Part shown: positions 7,101-64,000 of the stretch, piece by piece
How the letters are laid out: each line of letters opens with the position of its first letter
Position numbering within the stretch: the stretch's first letter is position 1
Source of the DNA: Vairimorpha necatrix
Lineage: Eukaryota
Assembly (NCBI GenBank): GCA_036630325.1
Contig: CP142726.1
Coordinates: forward strand, 1,178,001 to 1,242,000
Reading direction: 5' to 3'
Length of the DNA stretch: 64,000 nucleotides
Notes under the pieces: generated by a model
What the model was told of the DNA's origin: nothing
The model's database searches: none
Seen by the model: only the letters and a program-made list of their open reading frames with translations
Made by a program: the position numbers and the translations under genes

Positions 7101-9061
7101 TTTTAAGGGATATATAACTTTTTAATTTATAGAAAAAAATGTAAATTTAACCAATTGAATATTTTTACTAAATGGGAGTACTGTTCTTATTGCATTTGTT
7201 CAAATAAGATTCTAGTTTTTTATTATTTTTTTGTCTATTAATTAAAGCTGTCGTAATAATTTAATTCTTATTTTTACATTCTCAATGTAGTTTTTTGATC
7301 ATAATGTTTTGATGCAATGTATTACATTTCTAGATAATTTTGTCTTTTCTAAATTGCTTAGTTATGAAATTATTACATTACAAAATTTCATATAAAGAGA
7401 CTTTTATTTTGATTTTGTTTTTGACTTTAAATTAAAGACGTGTAAACTATTTGATCAAAATTTAATATTTCTTAAAAAGTCTTAACATGATTACTTCTCG
7501 GATTATATACATATGATGTATTTTATTGATTTTTTAGTTATGAGGTATTATTAAATTCTTTTAGTTATATGACACATTTTCACTTCCATTGTATTTACTA
7601 AACATTAAAATAATTATAAACATAATATCATACTAGTTTTTTACTTATTCAAAATAAAATCATAGTAAGATAATAATTTTGTAAGAATTTTCAGTATGAA
7701 AAAACAATAAAAGATGCTCAATATGAAATTTCCAAAGACCTTTTTTGCTACATAAGATACGATAACAAACATAAAAATTTAAAAATTGACTTTATTCTTA
7801 TAAAGTGCTACTCAAATTCAAATATTGCAACATAAAGGCAGCCAATGGTATGTAAAAACATAAAAATTGTATGATTTCCAGCACAAAATACCTACATCTT
7901 GTTAAAAACAGAACTTATGAAAAAATAATGTGGTTTTGTGACTACTATGTTTGAATTTTAGCGCCATATAGTTTTATAAGGCCTTACACAATGCATTTTT
8001 AGTAGAGTCACGAGCTAACTTAATAAATTAACGAAGTATAGATGAATGTTGGTAGATTCTATCCTAGAGGGTGTTACTTTTATTTAACAAAACTTTTAGA
8101 GACATGTGGTAATGCGCTCTAAATTTCAGGATTATTGATATTGCAATCAAAAGGCAGTAAACGAGGTAAATGGTGGTATAGAACTTTTGTATTTATGCAC
8201 GAATTTAACAAAAATTCCAATAATTTAATCTGATTTCAAATGTCTTGCGCGCGGTTAGGTACAAATAATAATCGATTCGCCGAAGTCAACTTTATCGTAC
8301 ATGACAAGATTTTTTTACACATGAAAATATAATGCGCTGTCGACATAGAATCTCGTCGTATCAGATATGTTAGTATCGTATTGTTGATTTTATGTGAATG
8401 TTTTCGCCCTCTTGCCTGTAAAAAAAACCTTTAATGTTGGAAATTTCCGAAAAAAAATATATGAAAGATGATTAAAAAAAGTTATGATCGTATTTTTTTC
8501 ACTTATATTTTTTGTAAAATTTTTTTTTAAAACAAGTTTTAATCTATGATATCGTAATTTTTGTTTGTTCAACAATAAAAAAAAATAGTATCTTAAGAAA
8601 TCGGAAAAGGAATCTGTTGTAATATTCCCATTATTAAATTTTTAAAATTTTGTAAATCAATATAATTTGAGGTTTTGAATATTAGAAAAGTATCCAAAGC
8701 AGGCAATACCACATAACCAGCCCAAATTAATGAAATGTAAATAAACAACATTCTTTTAGTAAAGCTTAACCATTAAGGTGAATACCACTTTTTTGCTACT
8801 AAGGGCATATTTCACACTGTTCCGTAATATTTTCCTGTAAAGTTTTAAGCACAAATGCAATAGAATTTTCTATCTTAAGTTCCAAAAAGCCAAATTACAG
8901 GATTATACGTGTAATTTTTTTCGGCAAACTTTTTTCGTATTAGTTTACATGATAAACTTCGTTTTACTTAAAAAAAGATCCAGAAAAATGAATTTTTTAA
9001 AAAAACAATAAAAAAGTTCATTTGGTATTTTATAGTAAAAAAACGTTTCAGAAATTTATTT

Positions 9062-17976: not shown

Positions 17977-18958
17977 AGAAATTATATTAGAAGTGACCAT
18001 TGGTGTTTTGCGATTCTCAAATAAGTCAGAATGGTTTAGTTGAATCATGGAAATGACTCGTCACAGAACAAACAATAAACTTCGGGGCTATTTGTAGAGC
18101 ATCTCTAAGGCATCAACATTGATGCCCAGTTGCTGCCTAAATATACATATAATGTATGTGCTATAAAAACACTGGTTGAGTAGTATACATCTGGGTGGGC
18201 TATTTGAGAGAACTTAAGAGGCTATACGAGGTAAGCTGAAAGATCTTACGGAACCTTTAGAACTTTGTTACTCGTTGGCCTCTTTTTGTGTAAAACAAGT
18301 CGTAAACAAAGACAAAACTGCGGTCTCAGGGGACAGGGGTGTTTAAGATGCAGACTGATTTGAAGATTTTCCGGACTGAACGATGTCGTCTTTACTTTAG
18401 TTAAATAGATCTTGCATGTAAATATATCTGCCATGAATCCTTATATGGTTATAGAAACTAACAATCCCAAGAGGCAAAGTTTAAATGACAAATAAAATTA
18501 TAATTTTATGTCTTAAAACTATAATAATAGTTTAAAAGTTGTATTTTAAATTTAAGGTTCTTTTGTAAAGACATGCTTGCTGCTTACTTGCAGAAAGACA
18601 TATGTGACTTTTGTACAATTTCAAGTGTTTTAGATGCAGACAAGAATAGTCTAGTTAACAAGTTTTGCTGGATCTTAAGAAATATGCATCTTTATCCTCC
18701 AATGCAAGTGGAAGCACCTTTAAGGCGTATAACACTCAGAAAAAATGTTCTTAAGATCTTACATTATAAATGTTTTACCCTTTTACTCCTGTCTTCATTG
18801 TGCGCCCTCTTGTTCTTCTAAGATATTTTGGCGTCTCGTCCCTTGAATATATTAAACTTCTTCCATTTTTATATTAAAGCTAATGAGATTCTCTTATATA
18901 TATTTGTAATTATAATACTTATGTTTTTTTTTGCTCCCGCCCCTTCTTTCTTTTTGTT

Positions 18959-21896: not shown

Positions 21897-22770
21897 ATAA
21901 ACTTTATACGAAAAAAAACTTATATTTTTTTATATTGAGCCTCCTTCGCGGGGTTTATATTATTTAACTAAATGGGTGGGATATTTTTATATCTAGTTAT
22001 TTTCTTATCTTTTTTATATGGGACGTGGTTTTTTTTTGTCTCAACTAAATTAGGTCAATTGCACACTCATACATGATTTTCAACAACTTATACGCATTTA
22101 TACGCAGCGATAAGATTTGTTCGTCAAAATTTTAGATTTTACTAATCCTATGATGAACACTATTTGTTCTCTATTATTAAAAACTGTTGGTATATTCACA
22201 GATGCTCACAAGCGTATATTTTCAATTGTTCTATAAGACCAGCTTGTTGCAATTTCAAATAAAATTCAAAACAACGCAGAATTCACTGCTAATTTAAGGT
22301 AATTAGAAATTAAGTCAGTTATATTTCTTATGGTATTTAAGAAAAATATTAAATCAAGCCTAAAGCTTGTATATCTTTTCTTACGTGAAATCTTTTAAGC
22401 ACATGCTTAAATTTATGGGCGACAAGTAGTCGATTCAGCCCTTAAATACAGATTCTATGTTGTAAGTAAAAGGGATAAAGAAGATTGTAGAAATCTTTGA
22501 GTCAGTACGATGATGTCTCTCCTCGGATTATTAAATCCGTGTCAGATATTTTAATCTGTTTTTATTTGATATCTTAATCTGTTTTAACCATTCTGGGGTG
22601 TTATTTCCCTAATGCCGAAGCCTTAAACATGGTCGAGCTTAAAAATATATATAAGAAAAATAATTAAGAATCTCGCAGTATCAGTTGGATAATTTCGACT
22701 CTCTTGTTTCAAAATAGGGCCCTCATGTTTCTTACTTGCTTGAAAATTTATAACACCTTCCTCTTTGATC

Positions 22771-34337: not shown

Positions 34338-34379
34338 TTTTTGGTGGGGTAAAATAAAAAGAAAATATTTATAGAAAAA

Positions 34380-39559: not shown

Positions 39560-40450
39560 AAATGGAGGAAAGTAAATGATGAGGAAGAAACAAAAACTAA
39601 AGTAGAATAAATAATTTAAAAATCTACAAACACTGAAGTGTTGTTTTTTTTTGAACCATATTTCTAATTAAATTTTGAGCTTTTGACGGATCTGTTTCTA
39701 TTTTCTACAATATTATTTAAAGAGATCGCCATTTACCTTAATGGAATTGGTATGAGCTATTACATCTAAATCTCTGCAATATATAAAATGATTTACTATA
39801 TGATGTTGGTTAAATATAGTATTTAAAGAATGATAGGCTTCTGTATATCACTCTATATTGTGATGCTTAAACTTAATTATTTAAAAGAAGCACAGTAAGT
39901 CTGTTTTTATCTCTTTTCTAATATATTTGTACAATTCTACATTAAATGATACGTTTTTCATTCATAAACACTAAAAATTTCTATTATTTTATCCTTAGTT
40001 TATTCTTTCCGATCTTAGTATCATCAATTTCTACAATTATATTCTCGCCACCTGGATTTTCTATACTAGAAAAATAATAATTATAAAAGTATTTTTTTAA
40101 CACTTTTAAATGCTGCAGCATTTGATTTTTTGAATCGCAAAAAATTTGAGAAAATACTTACGAAGATAGCCAAGAATCTGCATTTTAGTACTTGTAATGT
40201 TGTAATGTAATATAGCCTATAATCTTGTAACTAAATTTGATCTTATATAGAATTTGTAATTTAACATATACTTCATGAATACCTTATAATACTTCTGTTT
40301 TTTCCTCTTTGTTTCATTTTAGAATTAAATACTCCAATTTTCATTATTTAATCATTATATAAGATCGCTATTTCTTCTCTTGTTCGCATTATTTTCTCCA
40401 GTTTTTAAAAAAGAGGCAAACACTTCCCCCATATCAACATCCTAACTAAA
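39560..40450 (-). mobile_element. Decayed Merlin/ISXO2-like transposase (same family as 5070-6240)
   Basis: GGENIIVEIDDTKIGK motif. It shares aaatgatgaggaag(g/a)aacaaaaa and atatgatgttgg with the 5.1-5.9 kb relic. Confidence 0.75.
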
Positions 40451-43504: not shown

Positions 43505-44366
43505 GAAAAAAAAATAAAGGTCTTTTTTAAACATTTAATTTAACATTTATTGCGGTTAGATCTATGTATTTTTAATGTTTATTTTTCCTTCTGATTATCA
43601 AGTTTTATAAATTGTTTGTACATTTTAAAAAAATATTTTAAATTATACTACATCTCTGCAGTCAAATAGCATATAAATTTCAGGTTAAAAAACGAATGAA
43701 TTGTGTTGCAGGATCGCAATTTATCGGATTTATCTTAAGAGCATAGTATTAAATCTGTTTATATGAGTGCAGCTTTCTCTGACATCTCTAGCATGTTATT
43801 ATATGCAATTCAAATAGCCTCCCAAGACATAATAGAGACTAAATAATAATTCTATAATTATAACTCAATCAAGTTAAAAATTTGTGTTTTGCACCAACCA
43901 CGACATTGCGCATATTTATTGTTCTATTTTACAACCGTTTTCCATGTCGTGACGCATAAGCAAAACATACCTTCAATAATGCAATAGATCTGCAAGTTGT
44001 TCTTAAAATTTCCAAATCCATCATGTTAAGCCTTTAAAAATTTTTTAGGCTTTGTTGTGCGTTATTATTCTTTTTATATCAGAATTTTCGTTCTATTGTT
44101 TGTACAAACGAATTTTTTGTCATTGTAGGTCCCAACTGTGTTTTTTGCCTATACTGTCATACACGCACTATAGTTTTATCGGACAATATTATTGTTATTG
44201 TATAATAAAATTTGAACCCCCAGCCCTTGGCGCTTCTTTGGTATTTGCTGAATCCAAGACAACTCCCTTGTAATAGAAAAAATAGAAGAAATAGGAAAAA
44301 ATAGTAGAAATATAATTTAGTTAAATAAATTTGATAATAAATCAATATCACAACCAAGAAACTCAT

Positions 44367-44640: not shown

Positions 44641-45634
44641 GTCGAACACTCGGCGGTCTTACTCTCCGCTCTTTTAATTTTAAAGTTTTTTTTTTTTTTT
44701 TTTTGGGGGGGGGGGGAGAATATCAGCTTTTATATTGCCTAATATCCAAACTATGTCAGAAATTTAATCGTCTGAACTTGTTAAATATCTTATTTTACAT
44801 TTTCTACAATTAATTTACTCATCAAGTAGGACAATTTTAGCAGTCCACCAATAATTAGACTAAAGACATGCATTTCTAAAAAAAATTTTTAATAAGTTTT
44901 TTTTTCATAAACACCTTCGATAATGATACTTCCAATTATACTTCTAATGAAAAATAGCTACTTCTACATAGAATTAGATATATACATTCGCAGTAATCAT
45001 TCGAGGGCAACTTGCTTACTTTATTTACTAATAATTTTGCACTTTGCGAATGGTCGTATGCCTGTATACTGCGCTTCTAATCTCTTCTCATTGAATATTA
45101 CTCATTTCACAACTTCACTGCATTTAAAACATATTTTCTGTTCAATCAACACGTATAACTCAATCAATGATTCTAAACAATTGTCAATACTGTAAAAAGG
45201 CCTCTGTACTGGCTTGATTTTTTCGTGCTTTTCTTCGGTATTTGATTAAAAATTCAATATTCAAATTTTTTTATTAAGGATTCGGAATTTTTTAATAAAA
45301 ATTCCGATCAAAGATCAAAAAGCGCCCTTTTTAATCTATTTTTTAAGGTATTTATTAAAAAACCTTTTATATACTAGACCAAGAAAAAAAAATACTGAAA
45401 AGTTAAAAGGATCGTATATATTTAAATAATTGCAATACATACTTTAATATCTGTTTTCTTTACTAATATACATTTGTTTTTTTAACTTCAAAAGTGCTTA
45501 AAATTTTTTGTCTCCTTTTGCTACTTTTTTACAATATTTTTTATAGAATTATAAAAAAAAGTAACACGCTTTGAAAGGGAGCTTTGGGCATTCTGCTCTT
45601 TTTTTTAATATAAATAATGTTTTTTGACCCCATT

Positions 45635-47284
45635 ATGTTTATCATGCATTTCTTTTCAATGATTGTTTTTACACAAGCAAATCATAAATTGTTTTACGAA
45701 ACCATAAAGAACTGGTGGAACGAAAAAATTAAAGGAGGGGATTATTGGCCACTTGATACTACGAAAATATATTATCAAGCATACATAAAACCAAGATTCC
45801 AAAATTCCGACGGATTTCATACTCGGACTTCGCGCCAATCTTTTGTATGGAGCATATACGAACATGAAAACTATTTGTATACAAATATTAAATATGAAAA
45901 AAGTTCTGCATTAAAGATTCTTGTTGATGAATATGAGAAAGAGCTGGCGAAAATTTGGAAGGAGAAAAAAATAGATAATTTTTTTCTAGTGTACAACGTT
46001 GAAGATTTAAACAAGTACATAGATTCTAGTGAATCAATAACTTTTAAAGAAGTTATAGAAGAAATTAGAAAAAGAAATAACGAAAGAAAAGAAACAAAGA
46101 ACAAAGATCAATTTCATTTTAAAGAAATTTATGAAGAAGATAAGTATAAGGAAAAGCATTTTTTTGAGATTATTAGGAACGAGTCAGAAATGAACATTGG
46201 TAGCGAAAAATACAGAAATAGTTCATACACGAACCTCACTTATTACTCTAAAAAAGCTGTAAAATATGACGGCATTTCATTCAGTAGGTTTTTAAACAAT
46301 ATTCACTATTGCTTTTATATATCCAATAAAGAAATACTAGACATAGTAAAACGGCGTTTAAAAGAAAAAGAGGCCATTTACCGGATGTGTTTTGATTTAT
46401 ATGAAGATATTTTTTTTGTAAGAGATTCAAGCATAATTGCTGATTTTTTTACAAGTAAAAAGGGGGATATTTCATGTGTTACACGCCCTTGCATGAAAGA
46501 CTGCGAATCAACTGAATTAGTAAAAGATAAACAAAGTATACTGCAATGGTATATTAAAAATGATATTAAAATTCCTACAGATCAGGAATTTTATCTTGAA
46601 AGTATGGAATATCTTGAAAGAATCCACGGTCTAATAAAAAATACAAACTACAAAGTGATCGATGCATTCAATATATTATTGAAAAGTAAAGAAATTGAGA
46701 TTCTCATAGAAAATATTTTTATGAGATCAGGAGATCGGCCGGATGCATTATTTGGATATTTTTTAGTCAAAGACAACATAATTACCAAATATGATTTAAA
46801 TGACCTATTAAAGAAAAAAGTTTTTCATAAAAATCGCATTACACCAAAGATATCTAACAATATGAGGACAAAATGTAATTTAATTAAGATATTTCTATTT
46901 TTTGAAGCGGAAAGATATATAAATGAACAAGAGGTCGTCGGGAAATCTTTTGGAATTTTGAAAGAAATTGGAAATACTATGGAAAATGATTTGGTTGAAA
47001 GCGGAAAAGGGCCAAATCAAACCGCCCATTTGAATTTAATCGATATAATGAATACAGTAATTGCAAAACAAAGTGAAAATATTGAAGTTTATGGAACATA
47101 TAATATATACAATATTATTTCACTATTGGCAGAATCAGAATTTCAGGAAAAAAATAATTATAAAACAGAATACATGAAAGATGCAAATAAAAATGATATT
47201 ATTAAAAATTATAACATTGACGAAACTAAAATAAAAGAAGACAACAAAAAAATCAGGGTTCAACTTGCGAGAACTAGCCAATAA
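45635..47284 (+). CDS. Secreted multigene-family protein, diverged copy B (549 aa)
   Basis: Same signal peptide and CCCCATT-ATG context as copy A, with blocks identical to it. Confidence 0.9.
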   Translation: MFIMHFFSMIVFTQANHKLFYETIKNWWNEKIKGGDYWPLDTTKIYYQAYIKPRFQNSDGFHTRTSRQSFVWSIYEHENYLYTNIKYEKSSALKILVDEYEKELAKIWKEKKIDNFFLVYNVEDLNKYIDSSESITFKEVIEEIRKRNNERKETKNKDQFHFKEIYEEDKYKEKHFFEIIRNESEMNIGSEKYRNSSYTNLTYYSKKAVKYDGISFSRFLNNIHYCFYISNKEILDIVKRRLKEKEAIYRMCFDLYEDIFFVRDSSIIADFFTSKKGDISCVTRPCMKDCESTELVKDKQSILQWYIKNDIKIPTDQEFYLESMEYLERIHGLIKNTNYKVIDAFNILLKSKEIEILIENIFMRSGDRPDALFGYFLVKDNIITKYDLNDLLKKKVFHKNRITPKISNNMRTKCNLIKIFLFFEAERYINEQEVVGKSFGILKEIGNTMENDLVESGKGPNQTAHLNLIDIMNTVIAKQSENIEVYGTYNIYNIISLLAESEFQEKNNYKTEYMKDANKNDIIKNYNIDETKIKEDNKKIRVQLARTSQ

Positions 47285-49009: not shown

Positions 49010-52000
49010 TGTCAATAGATTTATTGTTGTCCTTCATCAAAATTAGGGGTTTATAAAATTTAAAAATAAATATCAACATCCCCCTTCTTAAAACATATCG
49101 TCAACTATTAATTTCAGCTGTGCAGCATGCCTTTTAAATCTTCTACAACCAACATCAATTAGGTAAGTGTTATTATCAAGGGAGTCAACTACCATTCCTC
49201 TGTTTAAGTATTTTGGAGCACCTTTTTTAATTATGCCTTCGTTCCTTATCATCACAACATCCCCCTTTTCGAATTTGTATTCCGCTGGTTTCCTTTCATG
49301 CTTTGTTTTGAATTTTAATATTTGACGTAGTTGTGTTTGTTTCAATTTCTCAGCATTTTCTTCATTACATGCTTCTGTTGGAGTCATTATAATTCCAGTG
49401 TGAAATGTGGTGTTGTATACGTGTAAGGCATGTATTAATCTTCGTGTCAGTAGTTTACCGGTAATATTCTTATAAATAAGGTCCTGTAAAGTCCTGTTAA
49501 AACGCTCTACCCTTCCATTTGATTGATGATGGAATGGTGAGGTATAATGCAGACTAATATTTTTGTCGGCACATAAATTTTTAACTGCATTTCCCAAATT
49601 TTCTTTAGATTGATCTAGAATTAATGTTTTTATCTTTAACTTTTCATTGATCTCTTTAATAAATTCTGCGACTTTTGAGGTTTCACGCGATTTAATTATC
49701 TTAGCAAATCCGTATCTTGTAAAATAATCAATTCCGGTGATAATGTATTGGTTATTAATAGGGCCAATAATATCAATGGCAACCTTCTCCCCCTTCTCGT
49801 ATGCTGTTACATATAAGAATCTTCTGTCCTTTTTTGGATTATATTTTGCACAAATAGTGCATCTTTTAATAACCTTTCTTATCACTTCTTCCACGTTTTT
49901 TACCTTAAATCCCCTTTTCTCGATTTCATACTTCATAGATTGTATCCCTCTATGCAAGAGCTCTTTATGAATTTGCTCTATCTGTTCTTCAAGGCAAACT
50001 GTTCTTTCAACTTCATTTATCGTAGGCCGTGAATCTAATTGTGGGAGAGGGCTAATTTCTGCTGAACAATTGGTAGGGTTTCGGCTCAGACAGTCTACGT
50101 GTGGTATCTCCTTTCCTTTTTTATACTTTATTTTAAAACTAAAATTAGCAATTCTCTCCAACCATCTTTGTATTCTTAACGACTTTATTTCTCCTTTATT
50201 TAGTGCCTCTAGGGCTTTATGGTCCGTTATGACTTCAAAATCAGTACCATACAAAAAATACTTAAAATGTTCCATGCCCCATAGTATTGCTAGGCATTCC
50301 TTTTCACTTATGCTGTATTTTATTTCCGTTTCCTGCAGTCTTCTGGATGCAAAAGCTACGGCTTTATCTTCACCTTCGAACTCTTGGGATAATATCGCAG
50401 CTATCCCACTGTTTGACGCATCTGTCTCTAATTTAAAGTGCTTATTAAAATCTGGTTGTGTCAATTCTGTGCTATGTTTAAGTGAATTTATGAGGGCTAG
50501 GAATGCATTGTTTTCTGCTTCTCTCCAGTAAAACGTCTTATCACCCTTTAACAAATCATAAAGGGGCCCGCCTATTAATGCACAATTGGGGATAAATTTT
50601 CTATAGTAATTTATCAGCCCTAGGAATTCCTGTACTTTCTTCTTATCTTTCGGAGGCTCTAGATCTTCGAGCGCCTGTGTTCGTTTCACACAAGGTAGTA
50701 CTTTATTATAGGTTATTTTGTGGCCCAAAAATTTCACTTCCTCTTTTTTGACTATTGATTTGTCCATATTTATATTCATATTATATTGTTTAAGTATATC
50801 TGTAACTCTCTTATATGCCTCGTCATGTTCTATCTCATTCCTACCAAAAACTAGAATGTCGTCCACATAGCAATAACATGACTTACCGAGCTCACTATTC
50901 AGAACATGATCCATATATCGTTGAAAAATAGCTGGGCTATTTTTAAATCCTTGTGGCATTACTGTCCACTCATATAGCACATGCTTGTATCGGAATGCTG
51001 TTTTGTGTCTATCTCTAACACTTAATGGTATCTGAAAAAATCCGTCTTTCAGGTCGATCGTGGAAAAAAACTTCATACCTCTTAAATTGCATAATATTTC
51101 GTCGATATTTGGTAACGAATAACGATCCAGTTCGACGAGATTGTTCAATGCCACCAAATTAGTCGTTATTCTAACCTTTCCATCCGGCTTTATTACTGGT
51201 CGAAGATTATTTAGCCAGGAGGAATTCGACTTACGAATGTATCCTTTCTCAATGAGTGTCTTTATAGATTTATCCGCTTCAACTTCTAGCTTTTTTGGTA
51301 AAGGGTATACCTTTTCCACAACCTTACATCCTTCTTTTGTTTTTATTTCACAAATATATTTAAATTTATCTTTGTTCATCACCTTCTTTATCGTGTTTAC
51401 TCCTATCAGAATTTTCTCAGATTTAACCTTTGGGAGGACATAGAAATCGGCCGTACAATTACTGTTTTTATATTTAAATTCTAGTGAAACATATTGTTTA
51501 ATACTAAATTGTTCTTCCAAACAGGTCCAGAATTTTATTTCCTCATTCAGTTCTTTAGGTATGAGTGATAGTCTTTGTATCACTGAGTAACTCATAAAAT
51601 TATATCTTGCACCAGTGTCAAATAAAACTGCAACTTTTACGTCTTTAACATAGATAAAACTCTCTTTATTTAAAATTTCTGCAATATCTTCGCTTATCTC
51701 ATTAATTCTCCTAGATCTATCGGTCTCTTTTCCGTTATTTCTATTTTCTGGGTACTTTCGACATGACCTAGCGAGATGACCCCGTCGTCCGCATTTATAA
51801 CATCCTGTAGACCTAGAATTTTCGTTAATTTTTAAAGCATTTAATCTTTCTAAAAGAGAATTTATGTTGTTCTTCTTGTCTACTTTTTTCTCTTTTTTCT
51901 TTTCTTCTTCCATGCTATGAATTCTCTGGAGTTCTCGAGCTCCTATTGATTTAACTGACCATAGATATTTTTTTATATCGCTATTACCTGCATTCAGTCC

Positions 52001-52455
52001 TTCTGCGATGATGTCTACAATATCTAAATCGCTCAACTTATAGATACTAGCCTTTTCTTTTACCCTTTCTATAAAGGCTATAATGCCTTCGTTCTCATCC
52101 TGGTTTAATCGGTATATCTCACCCAGGGAAATCTCTTTCTTACCAAATACTTCTTTGGCGGACTCTAACCATTTTTCATACATTAGAGCGCACTTTCTTC
52201 GCGACTCTAGAAACTCCTCATGCCATTCTATAATGGCGTAATCTGCTCTTCCTATGATGTATTCAATTTTATCTTCGTCATTCTTGTTGATGAAGAAAGA
52301 CATCATTCCAAGTCTCTTACATTCTTGAAGAAGGTTACGTTTTGTTATAACCATGTTTATGGGCTTTGATGTCCCATTCTCCACCATGTCAATAGATTTA
52401 TTGTTGTCCTTCATCAAAATTAGGGGTTTATAAAATTTAAAAATAAATATCAACA
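49010..52455 (-). mobile_element. Intact Ty3/gypsy retrotransposon, 3446 bp, identical 69-bp LTRs
   Basis: LTRs at 49010-49078 and 52387-52455 (TGTTGA...TTGACA), TSD AAGCC, PBS TGGTGGAGAATGGG and PPT AAGAAGGGGGA. Confidence 0.97.
49088..52414 (-). CDS. Gag-Pol polyprotein, 1108 aa, single uninterrupted ORF
   Basis: CCHC knuckle CYKCGRRGHLARSC, protease FDTGA, RT IDLKDGF/YVDD, RNase H ETDAS, and integrase HHCC plus DDE (IDYFTR, SNGRVER). The first ATG is inside the LTR after CCCCTAATTTTG. Confidence 0.95.
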   Translation of the reverse strand: MKDNNKSIDMVENGTSKPINMVITKRNLLQECKRLGMMSFFINKNDEDKIEYIIGRADYAIIEWHEEFLESRRKCALMYEKWLESAKEVFGKKEISLGEIYRLNQDENEGIIAFIERVKEKASIYKLSDLDIVDIIAEGLNAGNSDIKKYLWSVKSIGARELQRIHSMEEEKKKEKKVDKKNNINSLLERLNALKINENSRSTGCYKCGRRGHLARSCRKYPENRNNGKETDRSRRINEISEDIAEILNKESFIYVKDVKVAVLFDTGARYNFMSYSVIQRLSLIPKELNEEIKFWTCLEEQFSIKQYVSLEFKYKNSNCTADFYVLPKVKSEKILIGVNTIKKVMNKDKFKYICEIKTKEGCKVVEKVYPLPKKLEVEADKSIKTLIEKGYIRKSNSSWLNNLRPVIKPDGKVRITTNLVALNNLVELDRYSLPNIDEILCNLRGMKFFSTIDLKDGFFQIPLSVRDRHKTAFRYKHVLYEWTVMPQGFKNSPAIFQRYMDHVLNSELGKSCYCYVDDILVFGRNEIEHDEAYKRVTDILKQYNMNINMDKSIVKKEEVKFLGHKITYNKVLPCVKRTQALEDLEPPKDKKKVQEFLGLINYYRKFIPNCALIGGPLYDLLKGDKTFYWREAENNAFLALINSLKHSTELTQPDFNKHFKLETDASNSGIAAILSQEFEGEDKAVAFASRRLQETEIKYSISEKECLAILWGMEHFKYFLYGTDFEVITDHKALEALNKGEIKSLRIQRWLERIANFSFKIKYKKGKEIPHVDCLSRNPTNCSAEISPLPQLDSRPTINEVERTVCLEEQIEQIHKELLHRGIQSMKYEIEKRGFKVKNVEEVIRKVIKRCTICAKYNPKKDRRFLYVTAYEKGEKVAIDIIGPINNQYIITGIDYFTRYGFAKIIKSRETSKVAEFIKEINEKLKIKTLILDQSKENLGNAVKNLCADKNISLHYTSPFHHQSNGRVERFNRTLQDLIYKNITGKLLTRRLIHALHVYNTTFHTGIIMTPTEACNEENAEKLKQTQLRQILKFKTKHERKPAEYKFEKGDVVMIRNEGIIKKGAPKYLNRGMVVDSLDNNTYLIDVGCRRFKRHAAQLKLIVDDMF

Positions 52456-53020: not shown

Positions 53021-56000
53021 TGTTGGATGGTTATAAATAGCAATATTATTAAAATACCCCTTATGTCTACTATTCCCAACATGGCACCCGATACGGAAAA
53101 CTCGTATAGAAGGATGGAAGCACCCAAATTCAGTTTAAAAAGTGCACTTGTAGATTGCATGAAGTTTGAGATATATTTTAAAGACAAAAATATAATTGTA
53201 GATGAGGAAAAAATAAACACCGTCCTATTATTTTCAGACGATGAAGCCGTTTATTTCTTGTACACAAACAAAGAAAATTTTACAAAAATTTCATGGCGAA
53301 CATTTAAGGGAAGAATAAAAAAATACATGGAAAGGAATGCTTTAGAGAAAATTTTAAAATCAAAACAAAAATATAATGAAGCAACAGCAACTTGGATAAA
53401 AAGAGTTCTTCCCCTGGCAAGTGCAGCCAACTTGCCTCAAGAATTTACTAAAATGCTTATTAAGAATACATGTGTTAACTTAGATTCAATGTTGATTATC
53501 CAAGAATGTTTGATGGAACGTAATATTTACAAAGAGAAAGAAATGATACTAAAAGATATAGATGAAGTGGAATATATTAAGAAAACTGTAAAAAAGATAA
53601 GAGCTAATAGAGAGACAGTAATGAGAAGAAAAAGCGTTTCAGAGCTAAGACATAAAGAACCCATTAAACAAACTGACAAAACTGAAATGAAAAAATTTAA
53701 TCAATTAGTAAAAGAGCCTATTGATTATAACAAAAGTGATAATGTAACTGAGATAAAACTAAACAGTGTAAATATCTCCGCTTTTATGGATGAAGGATCA
53801 GATGTGAACATCATCAATGAAAAGAAGGTAGAAGAAAGAGGACTTATTGCATTACCCTGTGAACATACAACAATAAAAAACGTGTTTGGGGTAGTAACAG
53901 AACTGACTAAAAAGGTAGAGGTAACATTAAAAATCAATGATATTATACTTACTCAGGAATGTTATGTAGGAGCTTTTAAGAATTCCAATGAAGATATAGT
54001 TATCGGCAGGCCAACTTTAAATAAAGTAAAAAAACTTTAAAATGAACTTTCAGAGCTTGTAAGAAAATTTCCAAGGGGTTTTGATGGAAAGACAAGTAAA
54101 GGATACACGGATATAATGTGTGAGATAAACACACCGATAGGTAAGAAAGTGAATATAAAATACATAAATATACCACAGGCCCTAATGAAAGGAGCACAAG
54201 AAACAATTAACAAATTATTAGAACAAGGATATATAGAATATTCGACATCAGCTTGGTGTAATCCCATAAGACCAGTATTGAAACCAGATGGCACTGTTAG
54301 AATTACAAACAATATGCAATTTCTGAATAACCTAGTTGAAGATAACAACTATACAATACCTGTAATTCAAAACATAGTAGATGCCACGCGAGGCAAGAGA
54401 TTTTTTACATTTATAGATTTGACAGATGCCTACTATCAAATACACCTAAAACCTGAACATAAATTTAAAACCGCATTTTATTTTAAAAATAAACTACACC
54501 AATACACACAGATGCCACAAGGCTTTAAGAATTCACCTGGCATGTTTCAAATGATAATTGATAGTTTACTAGAAAACCTCCTTGAAACTGCTTGTTGCGT
54601 CTATTTAGACGACATAATAATTTTTGGAACAACAGAAGAAGAACATGACAATAACCTTGCTAATGTTTTGACAATACTTGAAAAAAACAACTTCGAGGTC
54701 AACCCAACTAAATTATAATTTAAACAAGAAACTATTAAATTATTAGGAATGATGATCGATGGAAAGAAACAATATCCAATAGAACAACATCAAAAAGGTA
54801 TGAGATTTTAAAGTACCAACCACAGTTAATGAGGTACAACGATTTTTAGGATTAGCCAATTATTACAGAAGGTTTATCTCAAACCTAGCTACAATATCTG
54901 CTCCGCTTTATGAATTACTTAAAAAGAAGAATGAGTTTATATGGAAGGAGGAGCAACAAAAAGCATTTGATATTATTAAAGAAAGAATCAACAGTAAGAT
55001 TGCTAGACATATTCCCGACTACGACAAACTCTTTATACTATCCACCGACGCATCAAATACAGGAATTGGTGCATGCCTACAACAAGAGCACAAAAACGAA
55101 ATTGCAGTAGTAGATTGGGCATCAAAGAAACTGACAGATGCTGAGAAAAAATATGGAATTACAGAAAAGGAATTTCTGGCGATGGCTTGGAGTATTACAC
55201 ACTTTGATTATTATCTACGAGGAAGAAAGTTTAAAGTAATAACAGATCATTCTGCAATTTTATCTATGAAAGATAAACACATTTTTGGAAACCTACGACT
55301 AGAACGAATGAGATAAAAATTACAGGATTACGATTTCGAAATTGAATATCGAAAAGGCAAAGAACTAATAGACGCCGATGCAATTAGCAGGATTTATGAG
55401 GATCCAAAAGGAGTTGAAGAACTTAGAACTAAAAATAAAAACGTATTAATCGCTTCGGATGGGAAGTGGTACTATAAAGTAAATGAAAATGAAATTAGAT
55501 ATTTCCCCGAAGTTCTTGAAAGAAAAGACATTTTATATAAAGCACACGAAGTACACACCGCGCATGGTGGAATAAGTGCCATGACTTACGAATTAAAAAA
55601 GAACTATTATTGGCCAAAAATGACAGAATCAATAACAAACCATATCAAAAATTGCGAATCGTGTGTCCGAAATGATCAAAAAAGTTTAGGAGGTGAAGAA
55701 TTTGTAGAAACACAAAGACCGTTAGAAATATTTGGAATGGACCTAATGTTTATTGACCAGAAGACAACACTAATGACTTGTATAGATTACTATACACGTA
55801 GATGCAAGATAAAATCAATAAAATCAAAGCAAGCTAGCGTCTGTGCGAATGCAATGACCGAGATATTTGATGAAATTGGAGTTCCTGAGAAAGTTATCAC
55901 AGACAATGGAAAAGAATTCACAGCTACAACTGTAAAAGAAATAATGTCCAATATGTTAGTAAACCATCATAAAATATCCATAGATAAGCACCAGTCGAAT

Positions 56001-56555
56001 GGTAGGATAGAAAGATTACATAGGAAAATTTGGCAAGCATTAAAAAAAAATAGAATGTAATCAAAAGGAAACATTAGAAGAAATGTTATATGATGTAGAA
56101 AATAAAATTAATAATACATTTAATAGAGCAATAGGTTGTACCCCGAACGAAGCATGGGATGATCCTGATAATAAAACATTGAAAGAATTGAATAAAAAAG
56201 ATTCAAAATACGGAAAAGAATTTAAAAAACTTCCACGTGAAAAATTTAGAATTGAAGAACAAGTGTTTATTCAACAAAATCCAATGCAGGCACAGGACAA
56301 GCTCAACGATAAATACATTGAAGAGGGAATGATACATACTGTGTTAGAAAATGACTCTTACTTAGTAAAAGTAAACGATAAACTGATCAAAAAGAGCCAC
56401 TCTCAGCTCAAATCAGTACCAACTATATGATTGCTTGTTATAAAAGCCAAGTTATAAAAAAGTTAGCAGACCGTAAACGTATTTTTGGGCGGGATGTTGG
56501 ATGGCTATAAATAGCAATATTATTAAAATACCCCTTATGTCTACTATTCTCAACA
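53021..56555 (+). mobile_element. Degenerate Ty3/gypsy retrotransposon with 61-bp LTRs
   Basis: LTRs at 53021-53081 and 56495-56555 (2 mismatches), ATG at 53063 after CCCCTT, PBS TGGCACCCGA and PPT GGGCGGGA. The gag-pro, RT (YLDD), RNase H and integrase regions carry stops and frameshifts. No TSD. Confidence 0.93.
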
Positions 56556-56671
56556 CTTACAATTATCTTTAACAAATATAATCCAAAAAAGAATAAAAAA
56601 TTTGTTTTTGTGACGGCCCAAGAAGTAGGGGGAAAAGTAGCCATAGATATAATCGGCCCAGTAGAAAATCG
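56556..56671 (+). mobile_element. Older gypsy integrase fragment related to the intact element
   Basis: KYNPKKNKKFVFVTAQEVGGKVAIDIIGPVEN versus KYNPKKDRRFLYVTAYEKGEKVAIDIIGPINN. Confidence 0.85.
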
Positions 56672-57464
56672 TTTTTTTTCTTGCAAGTAAGGGTAGGGAG
56701 AAATTTTACATAGGAACCAGAGGGATTTGGGTGTGATCCTCATCCAACTGGTACTGTGAGATTCTTACTCACTAAAACTCCCTCCATACAACTTGCCGGT
56801 GCAGCAAGCTCCGCCGTATCCATTGGACTTTGGCTCCAGGAGACACTTATCATTTATACCTCAAATCGTGTCCAGAGTGACCTCACAGCGGATATACTTT
56901 ACAGGCATTGTTATCTATAACCCGAGGAGAGACATCATCGTACTGACTCAAAGGTCCCTACAATCATCCGTATTGCACACATGGCCCCTTACACGACCAC
57001 ATCCCCAGCCCGGCGTTTTTATTGGGCTGCGTTGACCACCAGTCTCCCACTAGTTTCGGCCACCGTGTCACAGAATCATGTAGGATAGGGTCCACGAGAC
57101 CTTCTATTGCCCTACTTCGTCTAGTCTCTTAGTTATCTCTAGGATCCCACTCTAGAGTGCACCAGCCATGGGCTCCAACTAAGCCGTACCCATTAAATAC
57201 TTTTATGTGTCATTAAGTCACCAAAGGGCGATACTGCTTTTTGACCTTGAGGTGCGTTTCTACACTAGATGCTAATCTTCTTGTGGCTGGACACACACAA
57301 GTTTTATTGAATCAACTTAATGATTATCGTGGACATTTTCATCATCTGAGTTGTTCCAACTGCATCATAGAAAGTAGAAACAATTTTGGTGCCCCTGGGA
57401 ATCGAACCCAGCCATTGCTCAATGGAAGCATAGCATTCAACCACTGTGCTAAGGGCACCTCACA
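56672..57464 (-). mobile_element. tRNA-headed SINE-like element (~790 bp)
   Basis: tRNA-like head with A and B boxes, a GC-rich body, an A8 tail and a candidate 7-bp TSD AAAATCG (56665-71, 57465-71). Confidence 0.8.
57387..57459 (-). ncRNA. tRNA-like Pol III promoter module (SINE head; non-canonical anticodon arm)
   Basis: GGTGCCC/GGGCACC acceptor stem, TAGCACAGTGG A box and CTGGG-TTCGATT-CCCAG T arm. Confidence 0.75.
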
Positions 57465-59527
57465 AAAATCGGAATGTACATCTCGAAATCAAGAAATCTA
57501 ATAAAAATTAAGTTGAAAAAAAAACGAATGAAGTATATCTTATGATTGCAATTTGTCATATTAATCGTAAGAGACTAGTATTAAATGCGTTTGTATGAGT
57601 GCTACTTTGTCCGGAGGCCTCTGCCTGTTGTTATAAACACCTTCAATAGTGTTTCTCAATAATTTAAAAGGAATATAAAAGAAAATCCTATATTTTTAGC
57701 TCAATATAGTTGAGGCATTTGTGTTTTACAAAAATCTATGACATTTTGTATGTTTATTGTTATATTTTACAACAGTTTTTCATGTCGTGACGCATAAAAC
57801 AAAATATACCTATAATAATGCAATAGATCTGCAAATTGTTTACAAAATTTCCATATCTCTAATGTATAGCTCCTTGAATTTTTGTAGGCTTTCTAGCGCG
57901 TTATTTCTCTTTTTTTAGTGTTTTAATTCTATTGTTTGTACAAATATTCTTTGTCTAAATGGATCTTATGACTGTGTTTTAAAAGTGTATACTGTTATTT
58001 ACACGTATGCTTTTGTTGGGCAATATCACTGTTAATGTATAAAATAAGTTGAAAAAAACAGTTAAAATCCACTTTAGGTGGCAAAAAATTTAGTGACAAT
58101 TTTGTTTAAAAAAACTTTTTCTTATAAAAGATGTTATTAGAAGGAAAAATAAAAAATTTATTTATCATAAAATAATAACTATCACAACGAAAATGTATTA
58201 TTTCGGCCAAGAACACATTAAGAGCAAGATAACATGTATTTATAAGGAGTAAATGGTAAACATGCAAACACGGGGTTTCTTTTTTTTAAAATTCTATGTT
58301 TTCCAATACACATAAAAATCATCACAATATGAGACGGAATAGTGTGTATAAGTTAATAACGCGAATTTATAAAAAAATAGAAAATATGTTAGTTCTACAA
58401 TTGGCAAGCTAGATAAATAAGAATTTAATGAAAATTTTATAAACTGGATTAATATTATAGTTAAAATAGATGAATAAAAAAAGAGAAAATACGTATCACA
58501 GGAAAAGATTTTAAGGGGGTTTGATGTTTTGTAATGATGCAAAGAATTATTACTAATAATACATTATAGTTTCAGTAAATAAAATAAAACGCAGCACTCC
58601 AATGGTCAATTATATTAAATTCGTTTTGTGATTCTATAATTAATTTTTATAAAAGGCGTGCTTTTTTTAAAAAAAAAATTATTATTAAGAACATAAGATT
58701 GATAATTACAGATTGCGTCAGAGAATTATTGTATGGGATTGTACTAATACTATAAAAGAATTGGGGACTATAAAAACCATCTCTACAAATGAAAATTACG
58801 AATTTTTCCACAAAGTTAAAATATTTGACTTAATATATCATACGAAGAAAAGAAAAATGTAAATTTATATAAAAATTTTTGGCGAATATGTTTTTAATAT
58901 TTCTTTATGTTATAAAATATCATATATCTGTCTTCATTTTCTTTTTTAATAATTTTTTTCACACTTTGAAAATCCAAAATTTTTTTTCAAAAAGATTTTC
59001 ACATAAAGTTGAATTCATGGAAAATAGGTGGCTTTAACACCAAATTAATTGTTGTATTCTATTAAAAAAATAACTATAAGTAATTTTAAAAAGACATAAT
59101 AAACGAGTAAACTAAAAATAGTGAAAACATATAAATACACAGTTAAGTATGATTTTCATTAAAGATGTCTAAAACAAGATATAATAGTGCTATTTATTTT
59201 GCTAAATGTACGCGCCCTTAGGAATGTACAAAGAGGAATCATTTAGTTAAATATCAGAGAAATAATGTTTATGTAACAATTTAAAAAATCTAAAAAATAC
59301 AATATTTAGTTTGTAATATGTCATGGTAATCACAAAAATTATTTGTATACTTTTGCCATAATTTTGAAGATATAAGGCGAAAATCAAAAAAAGAATCGTT
59401 TTTTATTTTTTTAAATGTACTATATAAGATTAAACAACTGTGTAATTTTTTAGTAAAACACGAATATAACATTAAAGTCAGCTTAAGTTACCAAATTCCG
59501 ATATAGCTTTTTTTTTGTTTTTTATAA

Positions 59528-60418
59528 AAATGGAGGAAAGTAAATGATGAGGAAGAAACAAAAACTAAAGTAGAATAAATAATTTAAAAATCTACAAACA
59601 CTGAAGTGTTGTTTTTTTTTGAACCATATTTCTAATTAAATTTTGAGCTTTTGACGGATCTGTTTCTATTTTCTACAATATTATTTAAAGAGATCGCCAT
59701 TTACCTTAATGGAATTGGTATGAGCTATTACATCTAAATCTCTGCAATATATAAAATGATTTACTATATGATGTTGGTTAATATAGTATTTAAAGAATGA
59801 TAGGCTTCTGTATATCACTCTATATTGTGATGCTTAAACTTAATTATTTAAAAGAAGCACAGTAAGTCTGTTTTTATCTCTTTTCTAATATATTTGTACA
59901 ATTCTACATTAAATGATACGTTTTTCATTCATAAACACTAAAAATTTCTATTATTTTATCCTTAGTTTATTCTTTCCGATCTTAGTATCATCAATTTCTA
60001 CAATTATATTCTCGCCACCTGGATTTTCTATACTAGAAAAATAATAATTATAAAAGTATTTTTTTTAACACTTTTAAATGCTGCAGCATTTGATTTTTTG
60101 AATCGCAAAAAATTTGAGAAAATACTTACGAAGATAGCCAAGAATCTGCATTTTAGTACTTGTAATGTTGTAATGTAATATAGCCTATAATCTTGTAACT
60201 AAATTTGATCTTATATAGAATTTGTAATTTAACATATACTTCATGAATACCTTATAATACTTCTGTTTTTTCCTCTTTGTTTCATTTTAGAATTAAATAC
60301 TCCAATTTTCATTATTTAATCATTATATAAGATCGCTATTTCTTCTCTTGTTCGCATTATTTTCTCCAGTTTTTTAAAAAAGAGGCAAACCCTTCCCCCA
60401 TATCAACATCCTAACTAA
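59528..60418 (-). mobile_element. Duplicated decayed Merlin/ISXO2-like transposase
   Basis: Copy of 39560-40450. Confidence 0.75.
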
Positions 60419-61822
60419 AGCCGACTTTGGCCAATAAATGTTCTATTTTCGATAAATAATGCGTCGTTTCGATTTATTATGTGTTTTAAATTTTATTTTT
60501 AGAATTGATTATCTGAATTTACTTGATTTTTCTGCATATTATTGAAAAATAACAAATGCGTTATCCACTCATTCAAGAAAAATCAAAAAAAAATCTTTCT
60601 AGAAAAAAAATTATTACTATAACGAAAACAGATATTTTTGTAAAATTTTTGTCAAGAAAGCATCCCGATTACCGTTATATCTCGAAAAATTACATAAAAA
60701 TTATCATCTAGTGCTATTGAAGCATTTCACTTTAGCTTATTACCAAAAGAAAAGCAGAAGTTTTAATTTTAAACTTTATTTGGCAATTTAAAGCAGAAAA
60801 AAGTGGAATAACAAAAAACTAAAAAAAAATTTAAGGTATAATAAAGTAGCATAATATTTGAAAACAAAAATTCTTATTTTTATGTTTTTTAAACTCATAA
60901 ATATTTTCCTATTTACTAAGAATTATCTTTACTATGCATCGGATTCTTAAAAAAGATAATACTTGATCAATCTTATTAAAATAAATAGAGAGCACTGGCA
61001 AGATGCATAAACAACATAAACTCTTAGATTAATCACTTTTCCGCTCTAAAAATGAAGTGCAAAAAGGAGCAAGAAGGAAACAAAACTTGTTAAGTACTTA
61101 TGGTTGAAAAAGTAAATAAATCTGTTGTGTTTAAAATTAATTAAAAGGCAGAAGATCTGATTAACATTTTATTACTTGTAAAGGAGTTTATAAAATTAAG
61201 CTGGGATACGAAACACCTCTCCATAGATGGTATTTACAATAAATTTACCAAAAATGGAGCGCAAAAAAGGAGAAGCAAACAGTAGCACCTAAATAAAAGC
61301 TATCTTCAAACATTAAAGATATCAATTCAAATTTATATATATATATGTCTATAATATTTAATAATAAAATATGCTATTAAACTTTTTGATCTAATTAATG
61401 CTAATTATTTTATAAGCATTTTTTTTCATTAAAAAATTTGCTAGATTGTAGAATATGCGTTAAATTATTCTTGTCTGTCTGGTATTCCTTTTTTTAAAAG
61501 TTGGTCTAGTATATAAGAAGATTTATGAAGAAACCCTTTATATATACTAAATCAGCAAAAAAAAGAATATTGAAAGGTTAAAAGGTCGTAAAACTTTAAA
61601 TAATTGCAATGTAATGATAAAATATTTGTTTTCTTAGTATAAATATATTCCTTTGTTATTTTTAATGTCACAAGTACTTAGAAAGTTTAATTTCCCACTT
61701 GCTCCTCCGTTTTTTTAACTTCATTTTTGGATAAAAAATAAAGAGAAACATCCTCTAAAAAGGGCTGATTGCCATTTTGCCCCTTTTTAGTATATAAAAA
61801 AAAATTTTATTTAACCCCCATT

Positions 61823-63469
61823 ATGTTCATCATGCATTTCTTTTCAATGATTGTTTTTACACAAGCAGAACTTAGCCCGTTATACGAAGCTATAAAGAAC
61901 TGGTGGAACGAAAAAATTAAAGGTGGGGATTATTGGCCACTTGATACTACGAAAATATATTATCAAGCATACATAAAACCAAGATTTGAAAATTCCGACG
62001 GATTTTATAGTTGGAATTCGCGCTTATTTTTTGAAGAGCGCAATCATAAACGTGAAGAGGATTTGTTAACAAATATTAAATGTGAAAAAAGTCTCCCATT
62101 AAAGATTCTTGTTGATGAATATGAGAAAGAGCTGGCGAAAATTTGGAAGAAGAAAAAAATAGATAATTTTTTTCTAGTGTACAACGTTGAAGATTTAAAC
62201 AAGTACATAGATTCTAGTGAATCAATAACATTTAAAGAAGTTATAGAAGAAATTAGAAAAAGAAATAACGAAAGAAAAGAAACAAAAACCAAAGTTCAAT
62301 TTTATTTTAAAGAAATTTATGAAGGAGATAAGTATAAGGAAAAGCATTTTTTTGACATGATTAGATGTGAACCATATTTTAAGTTTAATTATTGGGCGTC
62401 CCCGTCTAGTACAAACACGCAGCCCAATTATTGTTCAAAAACAGAAATCCTTGACGGCATTTTATTTAGGATAAAAATAAACGAAACTCACTATTGTTTT
62501 GAACTTTCTAAGAAAGAAATAATTAACATTGTAAAAGAGTGTCTAAATGAGAAAGAAGTTATATATCAGATGTGTTTTGATTTATACGAAGATACTTTAT
62601 ATATTAAAGATTCTGATAAAATTTTGGATTTATTTGCAGAGTATAAATCGTATGGTTTAAAAAGTATACCTCGATACACGAAAAACTGCGAATTAAATAA
62701 TTTAGTAAAAGATAAACAAGATATACTTCAATGGTATAAGAAAAATAATATCTCAAATTACACAGATCAGAATTTTGATTTTGAAAGTATGAAATATTTG
62801 GAAAAAATCAAAGATCTAGCAGAAAGTTTAAATCTTAAAAGAATTGAGGCATTTGATATATTATTGAAAAGTGAAGAAATTGGGATTCTCATAGAAAAAG
62901 TTCTTCTAAGATCGGGAGCTCGCTTGGATGCATTATTTGGATATTTATTAGTAGTCGAGAAAATAATTAGCAGAGATGATTTAAATAACTACATAAATAA
63001 TATCTTAGATTATAAAAATAGCATTATACTCAAGTTATCTGACAGAATGAATAGAAAATTCAGTTTAATTGTGATTTATCTATTTTTCGAAGCAGAAAGA
63101 TATATTAATGAACAAGAGGTGGTCGGGAAAACTTTTCAAATTTTGAAAGAAATTGGAAATATTATGGAAAATGGTTCGATTAAAAGCGGAAAAGGACCAA
63201 ATCAAACGATCCAATATTTAAATCTGGTTGATATTATGAATAAAGTTTTCGCAAAACAAAGTGAAAATATTGAAGTTTATGGAATATATAATATATACAA
63301 TATTATTTCACTATTAGCAGATTCTAATTCTCGACTTGATAGATTTTATTTAACAAGATACAAGGAAAAAGTGGATAAAAATGGTATTATTAAAAACCTT
63401 AAGCTTGACGAAAATAAAGTAAAAGAAGATAACAAGAAAATGATGGACAAACTAAAGGGATCTATCTAA
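61823..63469 (+). CDS. Secreted multigene-family protein, copy C (548 aa)
   Basis: Differs from copy A at 7 amino acids. Confidence 0.9.
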   Translation: MFIMHFFSMIVFTQAELSPLYEAIKNWWNEKIKGGDYWPLDTTKIYYQAYIKPRFENSDGFYSWNSRLFFEERNHKREEDLLTNIKCEKSLPLKILVDEYEKELAKIWKKKKIDNFFLVYNVEDLNKYIDSSESITFKEVIEEIRKRNNERKETKTKVQFYFKEIYEGDKYKEKHFFDMIRCEPYFKFNYWASPSSTNTQPNYCSKTEILDGILFRIKINETHYCFELSKKEIINIVKECLNEKEVIYQMCFDLYEDTLYIKDSDKILDLFAEYKSYGLKSIPRYTKNCELNNLVKDKQDILQWYKKNNISNYTDQNFDFESMKYLEKIKDLAESLNLKRIEAFDILLKSEEIGILIEKVLLRSGARLDALFGYLLVVEKIISRDDLNNYINNILDYKNSIILKLSDRMNRKFSLIVIYLFFEAERYINEQEVVGKTFQILKEIGNIMENGSIKSGKGPNQTIQYLNLVDIMNKVFAKQSENIEVYGIYNIYNIISLLADSNSRLDRFYLTRYKEKVDKNGIIKNLKLDENKVKEDNKKMMDKLKGSI

Positions 63470-64000
63470 GAAAAAAAAATAAAGGTCTTTTTTAAACATT
63501 TAATTTAACATTTATTGCGGTTAGATCTATGTATTTTTAATGTTTATTTTTCCTTCTGATTATCAAGTTTTATAAATTGTTTGTACATTTTAAAAAAATA
63601 TTTTAAATTATACTACATCTCTGCAGTCAAATAGCATATAAATTTCAGGTTAAAAAACGAATGAATTGTGTTGCAGGATCGCAATTTATCGGATTTATCT
63701 TAAGAGCATAGTATTAAATCTGTTTATATGAGTGCAGCTTTCTCTGACATCTCTAGCATGTTATTATATGCAATTCAAATAGCCTCCCAAGACATAATAG
63801 AGACTAAATAATAATTCTATAATTATAACTCAATCAAGTTAAAAATTTGTGTTTTGCACCAACCCCTGGCATTGCGCATATTTATTGTTCTATTTTACAA
63901 CCGTTTTCCATGTCGTGACGCATAAGCAAAACATACCTTCAATAATGCAATAGATCTACAAGTTGTTTTTAAAATTTCCATATCCATCATGTTAAGCCTT

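Follow-up and report, generated by a model that had tools for sequence, protein, structure and literature searches.

What kind of sequence is the GC-rich, tRNA-headed stretch on the minus strand near the end of this Vairimorpha necatrix DNA, and where does it come from? A previous reading of the letters alone (the sequence-only reading) had proposed an unusually long SINE or a retroposed structured RNA transcribed by Pol III, possibly acquired from a host. The window, i.e. the whole 64-kb stretch analysed, encodes a V-ATPase A subunit that has 88% identity to its counterparts in Vairimorpha bombi and V. apis and 83% to the one in Nosema pernyi, which places this insect parasite among the Nosematidae microsporidia. 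Not1, a RuvB-like protein and an ABC transporter are encoded as well, together with several Ty3/gypsy pol regions. Within this window, 56672-57459 is a young copy of an old, many-copy tRNA-headed SINE family. We consider it very probable (roughly 0.85) that the family represents a tRNA-derived SINE (SINE2/tRNA) of a Vairimorpha/Nosema-type microsporidian and that a LINE reverse transcriptase copies it. The observations at the base of this reading are the anatomy of the element, the dispersal and polarity of its copies, the sharp ends of the family and the decay of its old members.

Anatomy of the element and its pseudo-tRNA head

The full-length copy (56672..57459, minus strand) measures 788 nt, i.e. 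780 nt plus an A8 tail, and both of its ends coincide with a step in contig depth in the public sequencing runs X1 and X2. It is composed of a pseudo-tRNA head (57387..57459, minus strand; recognised by ARAGORN, Rfam RF00005 and folding), a non-coding body of 707 nt (56680..57386, minus strand) and the tail (56672..56679, minus strand), which is read directly from the sequence and confirms the A8 run previously noted; it lies at 56679-56672. The 5′ boundary, previously set at 57464, had to be moved: the real edge is at 57459/57460, and the 5-nt leader beyond it is not common to other copies. The GC-richness ascribed to the body of about 700 nt holds, with 45% GC for the body and 46% for the whole element compared to 28% for the window. 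Coding capacity is absent, as for a non-autonomous element: the longest ATG frame within the element is 37 aa, and a Pfam scan covering 85 of the 120 listed open reading frames gave no match in overlapping frames of at least 55 aa. Neither LTR, primer site nor terminal inverted repeat was found at the element ends among the 17 direct repeat families and the 25 of 52 inverted pairs listed.

Searching the whole window with Rfam gave no match at gathering score. At E values up to 10, the region 56400-57700 yielded a match to the head and no family for the body; covariance models of RNase P/MRP, SRP, snoRNA, group I intron and ribozymes were all without a match in this region and range. This Rfam result also led us to drop similarities to motifs of group I introns and of RNase P that had been seen by eye, and telomerase RNA was dismissed as a candidate as not one 5-mer of the TTAGG template occurs in the element. 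Nothing in the analysis shows the element to be a special folded RNA or to stem from a host.

The near-complete cloverleaf attributed to the head was borne out: the 7-bp acceptor stem and the 5-bp T stem are fully paired, and the anticodon arm is aberrant. ARAGORN calls the head tRNA-Met(CAT), the sole tRNA in the window, and the Rfam tRNA model matches it over its full length with 27.7 bits (E 0.003; gathering score 29). The mascRNA model of Rfam gave 26.6 bits versus a cut-off of 42.5. The anticodon loop TCCATTG carries a C in place of U33 and a T in place of purine 37, and its stem contains one mismatch; in U33, purine 37, pairing of the anticodon stem and Rfam score, the head thus departs from a functional tRNA. 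With z -2.19 it was the sole piece beyond z -2 among 10 folded. Comparison of the head with phage genomes returned only matches of 20-25 nt to the T arm (E 0.6), which are of no help in assigning an isotype.

The head contains an A box (57441..57451, minus strand) and a B box (57398..57408, minus strand) of an internal Pol III promoter, both matching the consensus perfectly, and uniquely on both strands of the window. In the available part of the SINEBase article (PMC3531059), such boxes count as an indication only. Pol III transcription is predicted here from the perfect A and B boxes, and not from the scarcity of T runs to which the sequence-only reading had also appealed, as this avoidance proved insignificant.

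T runs terminate Pol III. The run counts themselves had been correct, with a single T4 at 56777-56774 on the minus strand, no T5, and seven A4-5 runs in addition to the tail. The proposed "Pol III strand signature" nevertheless dissolves, as few T4 runs are expected from base composition alone: of 1000 mononucleotide shuffles, 25% had no more than one T4 run, as had 59% of 2000 dinucleotide shuffles, and the first T4 lay at or past nt 682 in 9% and 27% of them, respectively. Set against the window background, the T4/T5 scarcity is rare (2% of 164 blocks). The element further contains 42 TT versus 64 AA (P 0.02), 9 TTT versus 22 AAA (P 0.04) and seven A4+ runs (P 0.035-0.05), all P values stemming from several tests and being uncorrected. 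This mild excess of A runs over T runs is a weak signal compatible with Pol III transcription. Some Pol III transcripts could end at the T4 within the body and never reach the tail.

Folding was similarly unremarkable outside the head. The three hairpins named by the sequence-only reading are present, but with z values of -0.76, -1.15 and -0.74 they are no better than shuffles. The whole element folds at z -1.80 (1 of 20 shuffles as stable) and the body at z -1.76 (3 of 60 shuffles as stable), compared to z 0.09 for the antisense. These statistics lend no support to a retroposed structured RNA. In a consensus fold of three sequences, many of the 36 pairs had a broken or gapped cell, so that it proves nothing, three divergent copies being too few for covariation.

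Decayed copies and the extent of the family

The element is neither single-copy nor a head beside an unrelated body: the window contains three more copies, and head and body rise together in run depth. All three are headless and lie on the plus strand. The 22-kb copy (22366..22746) covers element nt 362-784 with 33% GC (nhmmer E 7.7e-10; score 134 versus a shuffle maximum of 51). The 18-kb copy (18020..18596) extends from element nt ~121 to the 3′ motif at 18583-18591 with 35% GC (nhmmer E 1.9e-9; score 112.5 versus a shuffle maximum of 43). The 8-kb copy (7860..8428) is the most decayed, covers element nt 153-785 with 32% GC and ends in an A9 tail (8420-8428); nhmmer alone is weak for it (E 0.03-0.07), and its alignment score of 69 compares to a mean of 30 and a maximum of 50.5 in 200 shuffles. 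No match was obtained by nhmmer on the reversed window. Each decayed copy extends to the 3′ end of the element and lacks the head, for which scores of 16-18 compare to a background mean of 17. The window thus holds four dispersed copies on both strands, which occupy approximately 2.3 kb of 64 kb (3.6%).

Divergence was measured for two of the decayed copies: identity to the intact copy is 55% for the 18-kb copy and 59% for the 22-kb copy, and the two are 49% identical to each other. Their differences from the intact copy are mainly from GC to AT, by about 3:1 (103:40 and 91:29). In local alignments, each decayed copy scores 69-134 against the intact one, while the 18-kb copy scores 34 and 44.5 against the other two, which is not above shuffles; the 22-kb and 8-kb copies score 68 against each other. 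Such a pattern marks old insertions that have each decayed separately after leaving a source that itself changes slowly, and the activity of the family spans a long period.

Decay was not even along the element. A central block (56917..56968, minus strand) is best conserved in the 22-kb copy, with 90% identity over 52 nt, and includes an identical run of 32 nt (22489-22531 versus 56917-56959) in a copy of 59% overall identity; none of 100000 simulations of uniform decay reproduced it. The run is a misfit to uniform neutral decay, and gene conversion from a young copy or constraint would explain it.

A second point of conservation is the 3′-terminal motif CTTACTTGC (56683..56691, minus strand), directly before the tail. 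It has 3 matches in the window, at the 3′ ends of the intact, 18-kb and 22-kb copies, compared to 0.26 expected, and none of 100 shuffles reached 3 matches; the motif was chosen after alignment and is inexact in the 8-kb copy. CTTACTTGC is a candidate recognition site of the partner reverse transcriptase. The tail that follows varies in length, from A8 in the intact copy to A9 in the 8-kb copy and in a contig of run X3. In the intact copy, 56772-56764, about 80 nt upstream, can pair with the 3′ motif at 56692-56683 (minus strand); the 109-nt 3′ end folds at z -1.74, and the pairing of the motif is lost in the decayed copies.

Public sequencing runs extend these findings beyond the window. Of seven runs listed, none of them recorded as RNA, five contained part of the stretch, and four (X1, X2, X3 and X5) were compared, all as contigs; run depth here is summed contig depth and not copy number, and the small number of runs containing the element was not weighed against a host origin. 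In X1, the nine bins that span 56692 to 57447 had depths of 312-838; to their left the depth was 4-54, and at 57532 and beyond it was 0-3. For X2 it was 10,948-128,063 on the element versus 55 over the gypsy frame, with a peak at the 3′ end and a fall toward the 5′ end. The thin cover to the right of 57532 in X1, X2 and X5 was not taken as absence. As depth rises over head and body and drops at both ends, head and body travel together, and the ends of the family are 57459/57460 and the tail. X1 and X2 had 299 and 412 contigs on the element, respectively, with identities from 99% down to below 90%. Contigs leaving the reference were seen among the 24 of 355 loose-end rows listed: at least three from X1 break off at 57460 and continue into sequences with poor mutual agreement (0.59), at least one from X5 has another 5′ flank and lacks the 5-nt leader, and at least one from X3 has the A9 tail and another 3′ flank. 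At least one X5 contig carries an A at head position 2. Together with the copies in the window, the large excess in depth of the element over its flanks, seen in X1 and X2, points to many copies.

X1 and X2 also carry a gypsy element that shares about 94% identity with the neighbour of the SINE and thus represent related strains or species, not the present assembly. The 3′-weighted depth of X2 could reflect RNA or 5′-truncated DNA copies. In X2, many contigs skip 74-516 nt internally between 56691 and 57349 (15 of 31 joints listed, nearly all in X2 alone), either as internally deleted copies or as artefacts of assembly or library. One 272-nt contig of X3 is identical to the window flank 57761-58032, the sole such match among the four runs.

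Insertion site and genomic surroundings

The sequence-only reading had proposed AAAATCG as a target-site duplication. Both repeats are present on the plus strand, at 56665..56671 on the 3′ side, where the repeat overlaps the last codons of an integrase fragment, and at 57465..57471 on the 5′ side, 5 nt from the head; the chance of such a match within 10 nt is 0.001-0.003. The flanks, however, are unrelated and non-contiguous. The 3′ flank is a gypsy integrase fragment (56574..56671, plus strand) that lies behind the 3′ LTR (56495-56555) of another gypsy element and has 76% DNA identity to 49761-49846 (tblastn: 64% over 25 aa, E 5e-7); it does not resume past the head. From 57473, the head-side flank is homologous to the spacer behind a local gene family. 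The SINE either landed exactly on an older junction, or inserted with a deletion, or resulted from recombination of two copies, and the repeats are possibly, if not provably, a 7-bp target-site duplication.

The gene family in question has three members in the window (41858-43504, 45617-47284 and 61823-63469), the products of which measure about 550 aa and have a hydrophobic N terminus; Pfam matched neither of the two members scanned. A further spacer of this family, the fourth, starts at 57473 and lacks its gene, suggesting that the SINE site has undergone a deletion.

The surroundings are rich in other repeats. An MITE-like element of about 855 nt (17116-17971) has long inverted repeats with a C run (81% over 81 nt), and related pieces lie at 31967-32121 and 40771-40972. 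It ends about 50 nt before the 18-kb decayed copy, the head of which it may have removed. Gypsy elements with short terminal repeats were found at 53021-53081 and 56495-56555 (61 bp, 97%), at 49010-49078 and 52387-52455 (69 bp, 100%) and at 35026-35074 and 38152-38200 (49 bp, 94%), and the gypsy element at 49088-52414 has an unbroken frame of 1108 aa. Beside gypsy remains, an identical direct repeat of 228 bp (32449-32676 and 34152-34379) flanks a 527-aa frame without a Pfam match. A recent segmental duplication of 5.9 kb (38178-44034 and 58145-64000) is 99.3% identical.

Mobilisation, alternative origins and place among known SINEs

For a SINE of this build, established SINE knowledge predicts Pol III transcription, termination and LINE copying as follows. 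Directed by the internal A and B boxes, Pol III would start at the head, read through body and A tail, and stop at a flanking T run (minus strand: T4 at 56668, T6 at 56600 and 56590). A LINE reverse transcriptase would then bind the 3′ end of the RNA, probably near CTTACTTGC, and copy it by target-primed reverse transcription into a nicked site, with frequent early stops giving rise to headless copies. Seeding of further copies would be left to full-length, promoter-bearing copies, with the consequence that the active lineage stays GC-rich and dead copies drift to the A+T-rich average.

SINEs depend on a partner LINE, the 3′ end of which they often share. No LINE is present in the 64-kb window. 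The R4 endonuclease is of the restriction-like type. Dong-R4 is the only LINE class listed for the four Nosema/Vairimorpha assemblies of a transposon survey, and it occurs in each of their rows (supplementary file 5 of PMC7313128). In the available part of the V. necatrix annotation (PMC10759460), just one protein has the non-LTR signature cd01650, and a DNase I-like endonuclease forms its N-terminal part; repeats were masked there before gene prediction, so that this annotation may miss further non-LTR proteins. R4/Dong as the partner is insecure, given the DNase I-like endonuclease of the annotated protein. Dong-R4 and the DNase I-like non-LTR type are both candidate partners, neither being tied to the element by evidence.

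In some of the alternatives the RNA itself has a function. Enzymes of tRNA processing recognise their substrates by the acceptor and T stems. The element might be gene and mobile element at once. Its head would then be an RNase P/Z substrate and a promoter-leader from which the other 700 nt are released, either as a conserved working RNA or as a selfish one whose functional domains might include the central block and the 3′ motif, and very few LINE genes would copy it in large numbers; we regard this as improbable. Quite improbable, too, is a functional RNA gene in which the tRNA-like leader would supply the promoter and be cut off by RNase P/Z, the 707-nt body would be the working RNA and the copies retropseudogenes. 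Such a gene would fit the perfect pairing of acceptor and T stems beside an imperfectly paired anticodon arm, the central position of the intact sequence relative to the decayed copies, its retained high GC, a sense fold slightly better than shuffles when the antisense is not, and the one over-conserved block. It fits poorly with full-length headed copies at several sites, with the position of the present copy in transposon debris rather than at a conserved locus, and with contig identities as widely spread as for subfamilies; moreover, the body has neither an Rfam family at E up to 10 nor a 5-mer of the TTAGG template, the fold z is just -1.8, and the consensus fold is uninformative. Plant tRNA-snoRNA units are tRNA-led dicistronic RNA genes. 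These units and mascRNA/menRNA resemble the element in that a tRNA-like fold, its acceptor and T arms intact, is joined to a longer RNA; unlike the dispersed, A-tailed and decaying V. necatrix element, they are fixed genes, and its body contains no snoRNA.

The high GC content (46% versus 28%) could also be explained by a recent horizontal transfer of a SINE from an insect host, and host-derived transposons are reported for Nosema bombycis in the available part of its genome paper (PMC3614468). We consider such a transfer very unlikely, as copies of 55-59% identity and 32-35% GC in the same window make the family old here; furthermore, X1 and X2, the runs richest in the element, carry the gypsy element of about 94% identity, which fits parasite DNA. 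High GC does not call for transfer if it is preserved in the source lineage alone, dead copies declining to 32-35%. The suggestion of the sequence-only reading that the element was acquired from a host thus finds no support, the decayed copies reflecting long residence in the lineage; they argue against a recent host origin, though a transfer long ago is conceivable.

It is hardly credible that the element was moved by Ty3/gypsy reverse transcriptases or by a DNA-level mechanism. The window does have at least three gypsy pol regions and no LINE, and the copy sits inside gypsy debris with rearranged flanks, but the element ends lack LTR, primer site and terminal inverted repeat, the A tails and the 5′ loss in three old copies fit target-primed copying, and non-LTR elements are recorded in the genus. 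A working tRNA-Met gene beside an unrelated GC-rich insert, as the ARAGORN call might suggest, is at odds with the Rfam score below cut-off and the non-standard anticodon loop, and it is largely refuted by the joint rise in depth of head and body and by head variants in other contigs that differ at many positions, anticodon arm included.

The tRNA-derived SINE thus remains the reading of choice, and the description as an unusually long tRNA-headed SINE is upheld by the anatomy, the further copies and the joint depth of head and body. As in other tRNA-derived SINEs (SINE2/tRNA), a tRNA-like head with A and B boxes is followed by a non-coding body and a simple tail, here of variable length, and the copies are below 1 kb, dispersed and non-tandem. 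According to the available part of the SINEBase article (PMC3531059), the database holds 175 families of 75-662 nt, one definition of a SINE sets the limit at <700 bp and the working limit is 1 kb, tRNA derivation requires 60% or more identity to a tRNA across 60 nt or more, and the commonest pattern is a tRNA-derived SINE with a body of unknown origin. With 780 nt excluding the tail, the V. necatrix element is longer than all 175 families of that account; it also exceeds the <700 bp of the one definition and stays below the working limit. Fungal SINE-like elements named in the available part of another article (PMC5063351) include MgSINE (472 bp, with a cloverleaf head), mgsr1 (800 bp), Egr1 (700 bp), EGH24 (900 bp), Foxy and AfuSINE2. 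Going by these descriptions, the V. necatrix element shares with them a host of the fungal lineage, a length near that of mgsr1, Egr1 and EGH24 and the cloverleaf head of MgSINE; their hosts are ascomycetes, whereas it resides in a reduced intracellular parasite.

Within the microsporidia, the closest precedent is a "SINE" fraction of Nosema bombycis (28,669 bp, 0.18% of the genome; Table 2 of PMC3614468), given without a subtype and forming the sole mention in the available main text. By this table entry, it shares with the V. necatrix family the microsporidian family and the class label, and it contrasts in abundance, with 0.18% of a genome versus about 3.6% of one window. A SINE category does not occur in the available text of two microsporidian transposon surveys (PMC4202319, main text; PMC7313128, main text and supplements), so that the family is probably hidden there among unclassified repeats. 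The available part of a report on Microsporidia MB (PMC11585130) gives no SINE, and another article (PMC13702014) names a SINE category without a family. Searches of openly accessible full-text articles gave no description of a microsporidian SINE family; an annotation may already exist in subscription journals, Repbase or Dfam, and the element seems to be uncharacterised in microsporidia. The present analysis adds the age structure of the copies, their GC decay, the conserved 3′ motif, the sharp ends in sequencing runs and the insignificance of the T-run signature.

Other public sequence collections were searched by exact pattern and by homology. A central 20-mer had no exact match in JGI metagenomes or prokaryote genomes, nor did a head 22-mer and a tail 19-mer in viral contigs; the 5 matches of a central 17-mer in viral contigs were discarded as chance, none extending beyond 17-25 nt. 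The body had no match in phage genomes. The reverse transcriptase of the neighbouring gypsy element found one distant locus in viral contigs, and the V. bombi V-ATPase found 80 loci of at most 66% identity in JGI metagenomes. On the 86 loci retrieved, nhmmer with the element gave nothing at E up to 1, and a three-copy profile gave only two loci of chance 17-mers (E 0.7).

The family involves no new mechanism unless its body is a processed, functional RNA. In practical terms, tRNA finders will miscall the heads of the element as tRNA-Met, and differences in insertion could serve as strain markers. For the biology of the organism, the finding means that a reduced parasite genome is able to sustain a long-lived, probable Pol III/LINE parasite of unusual length.
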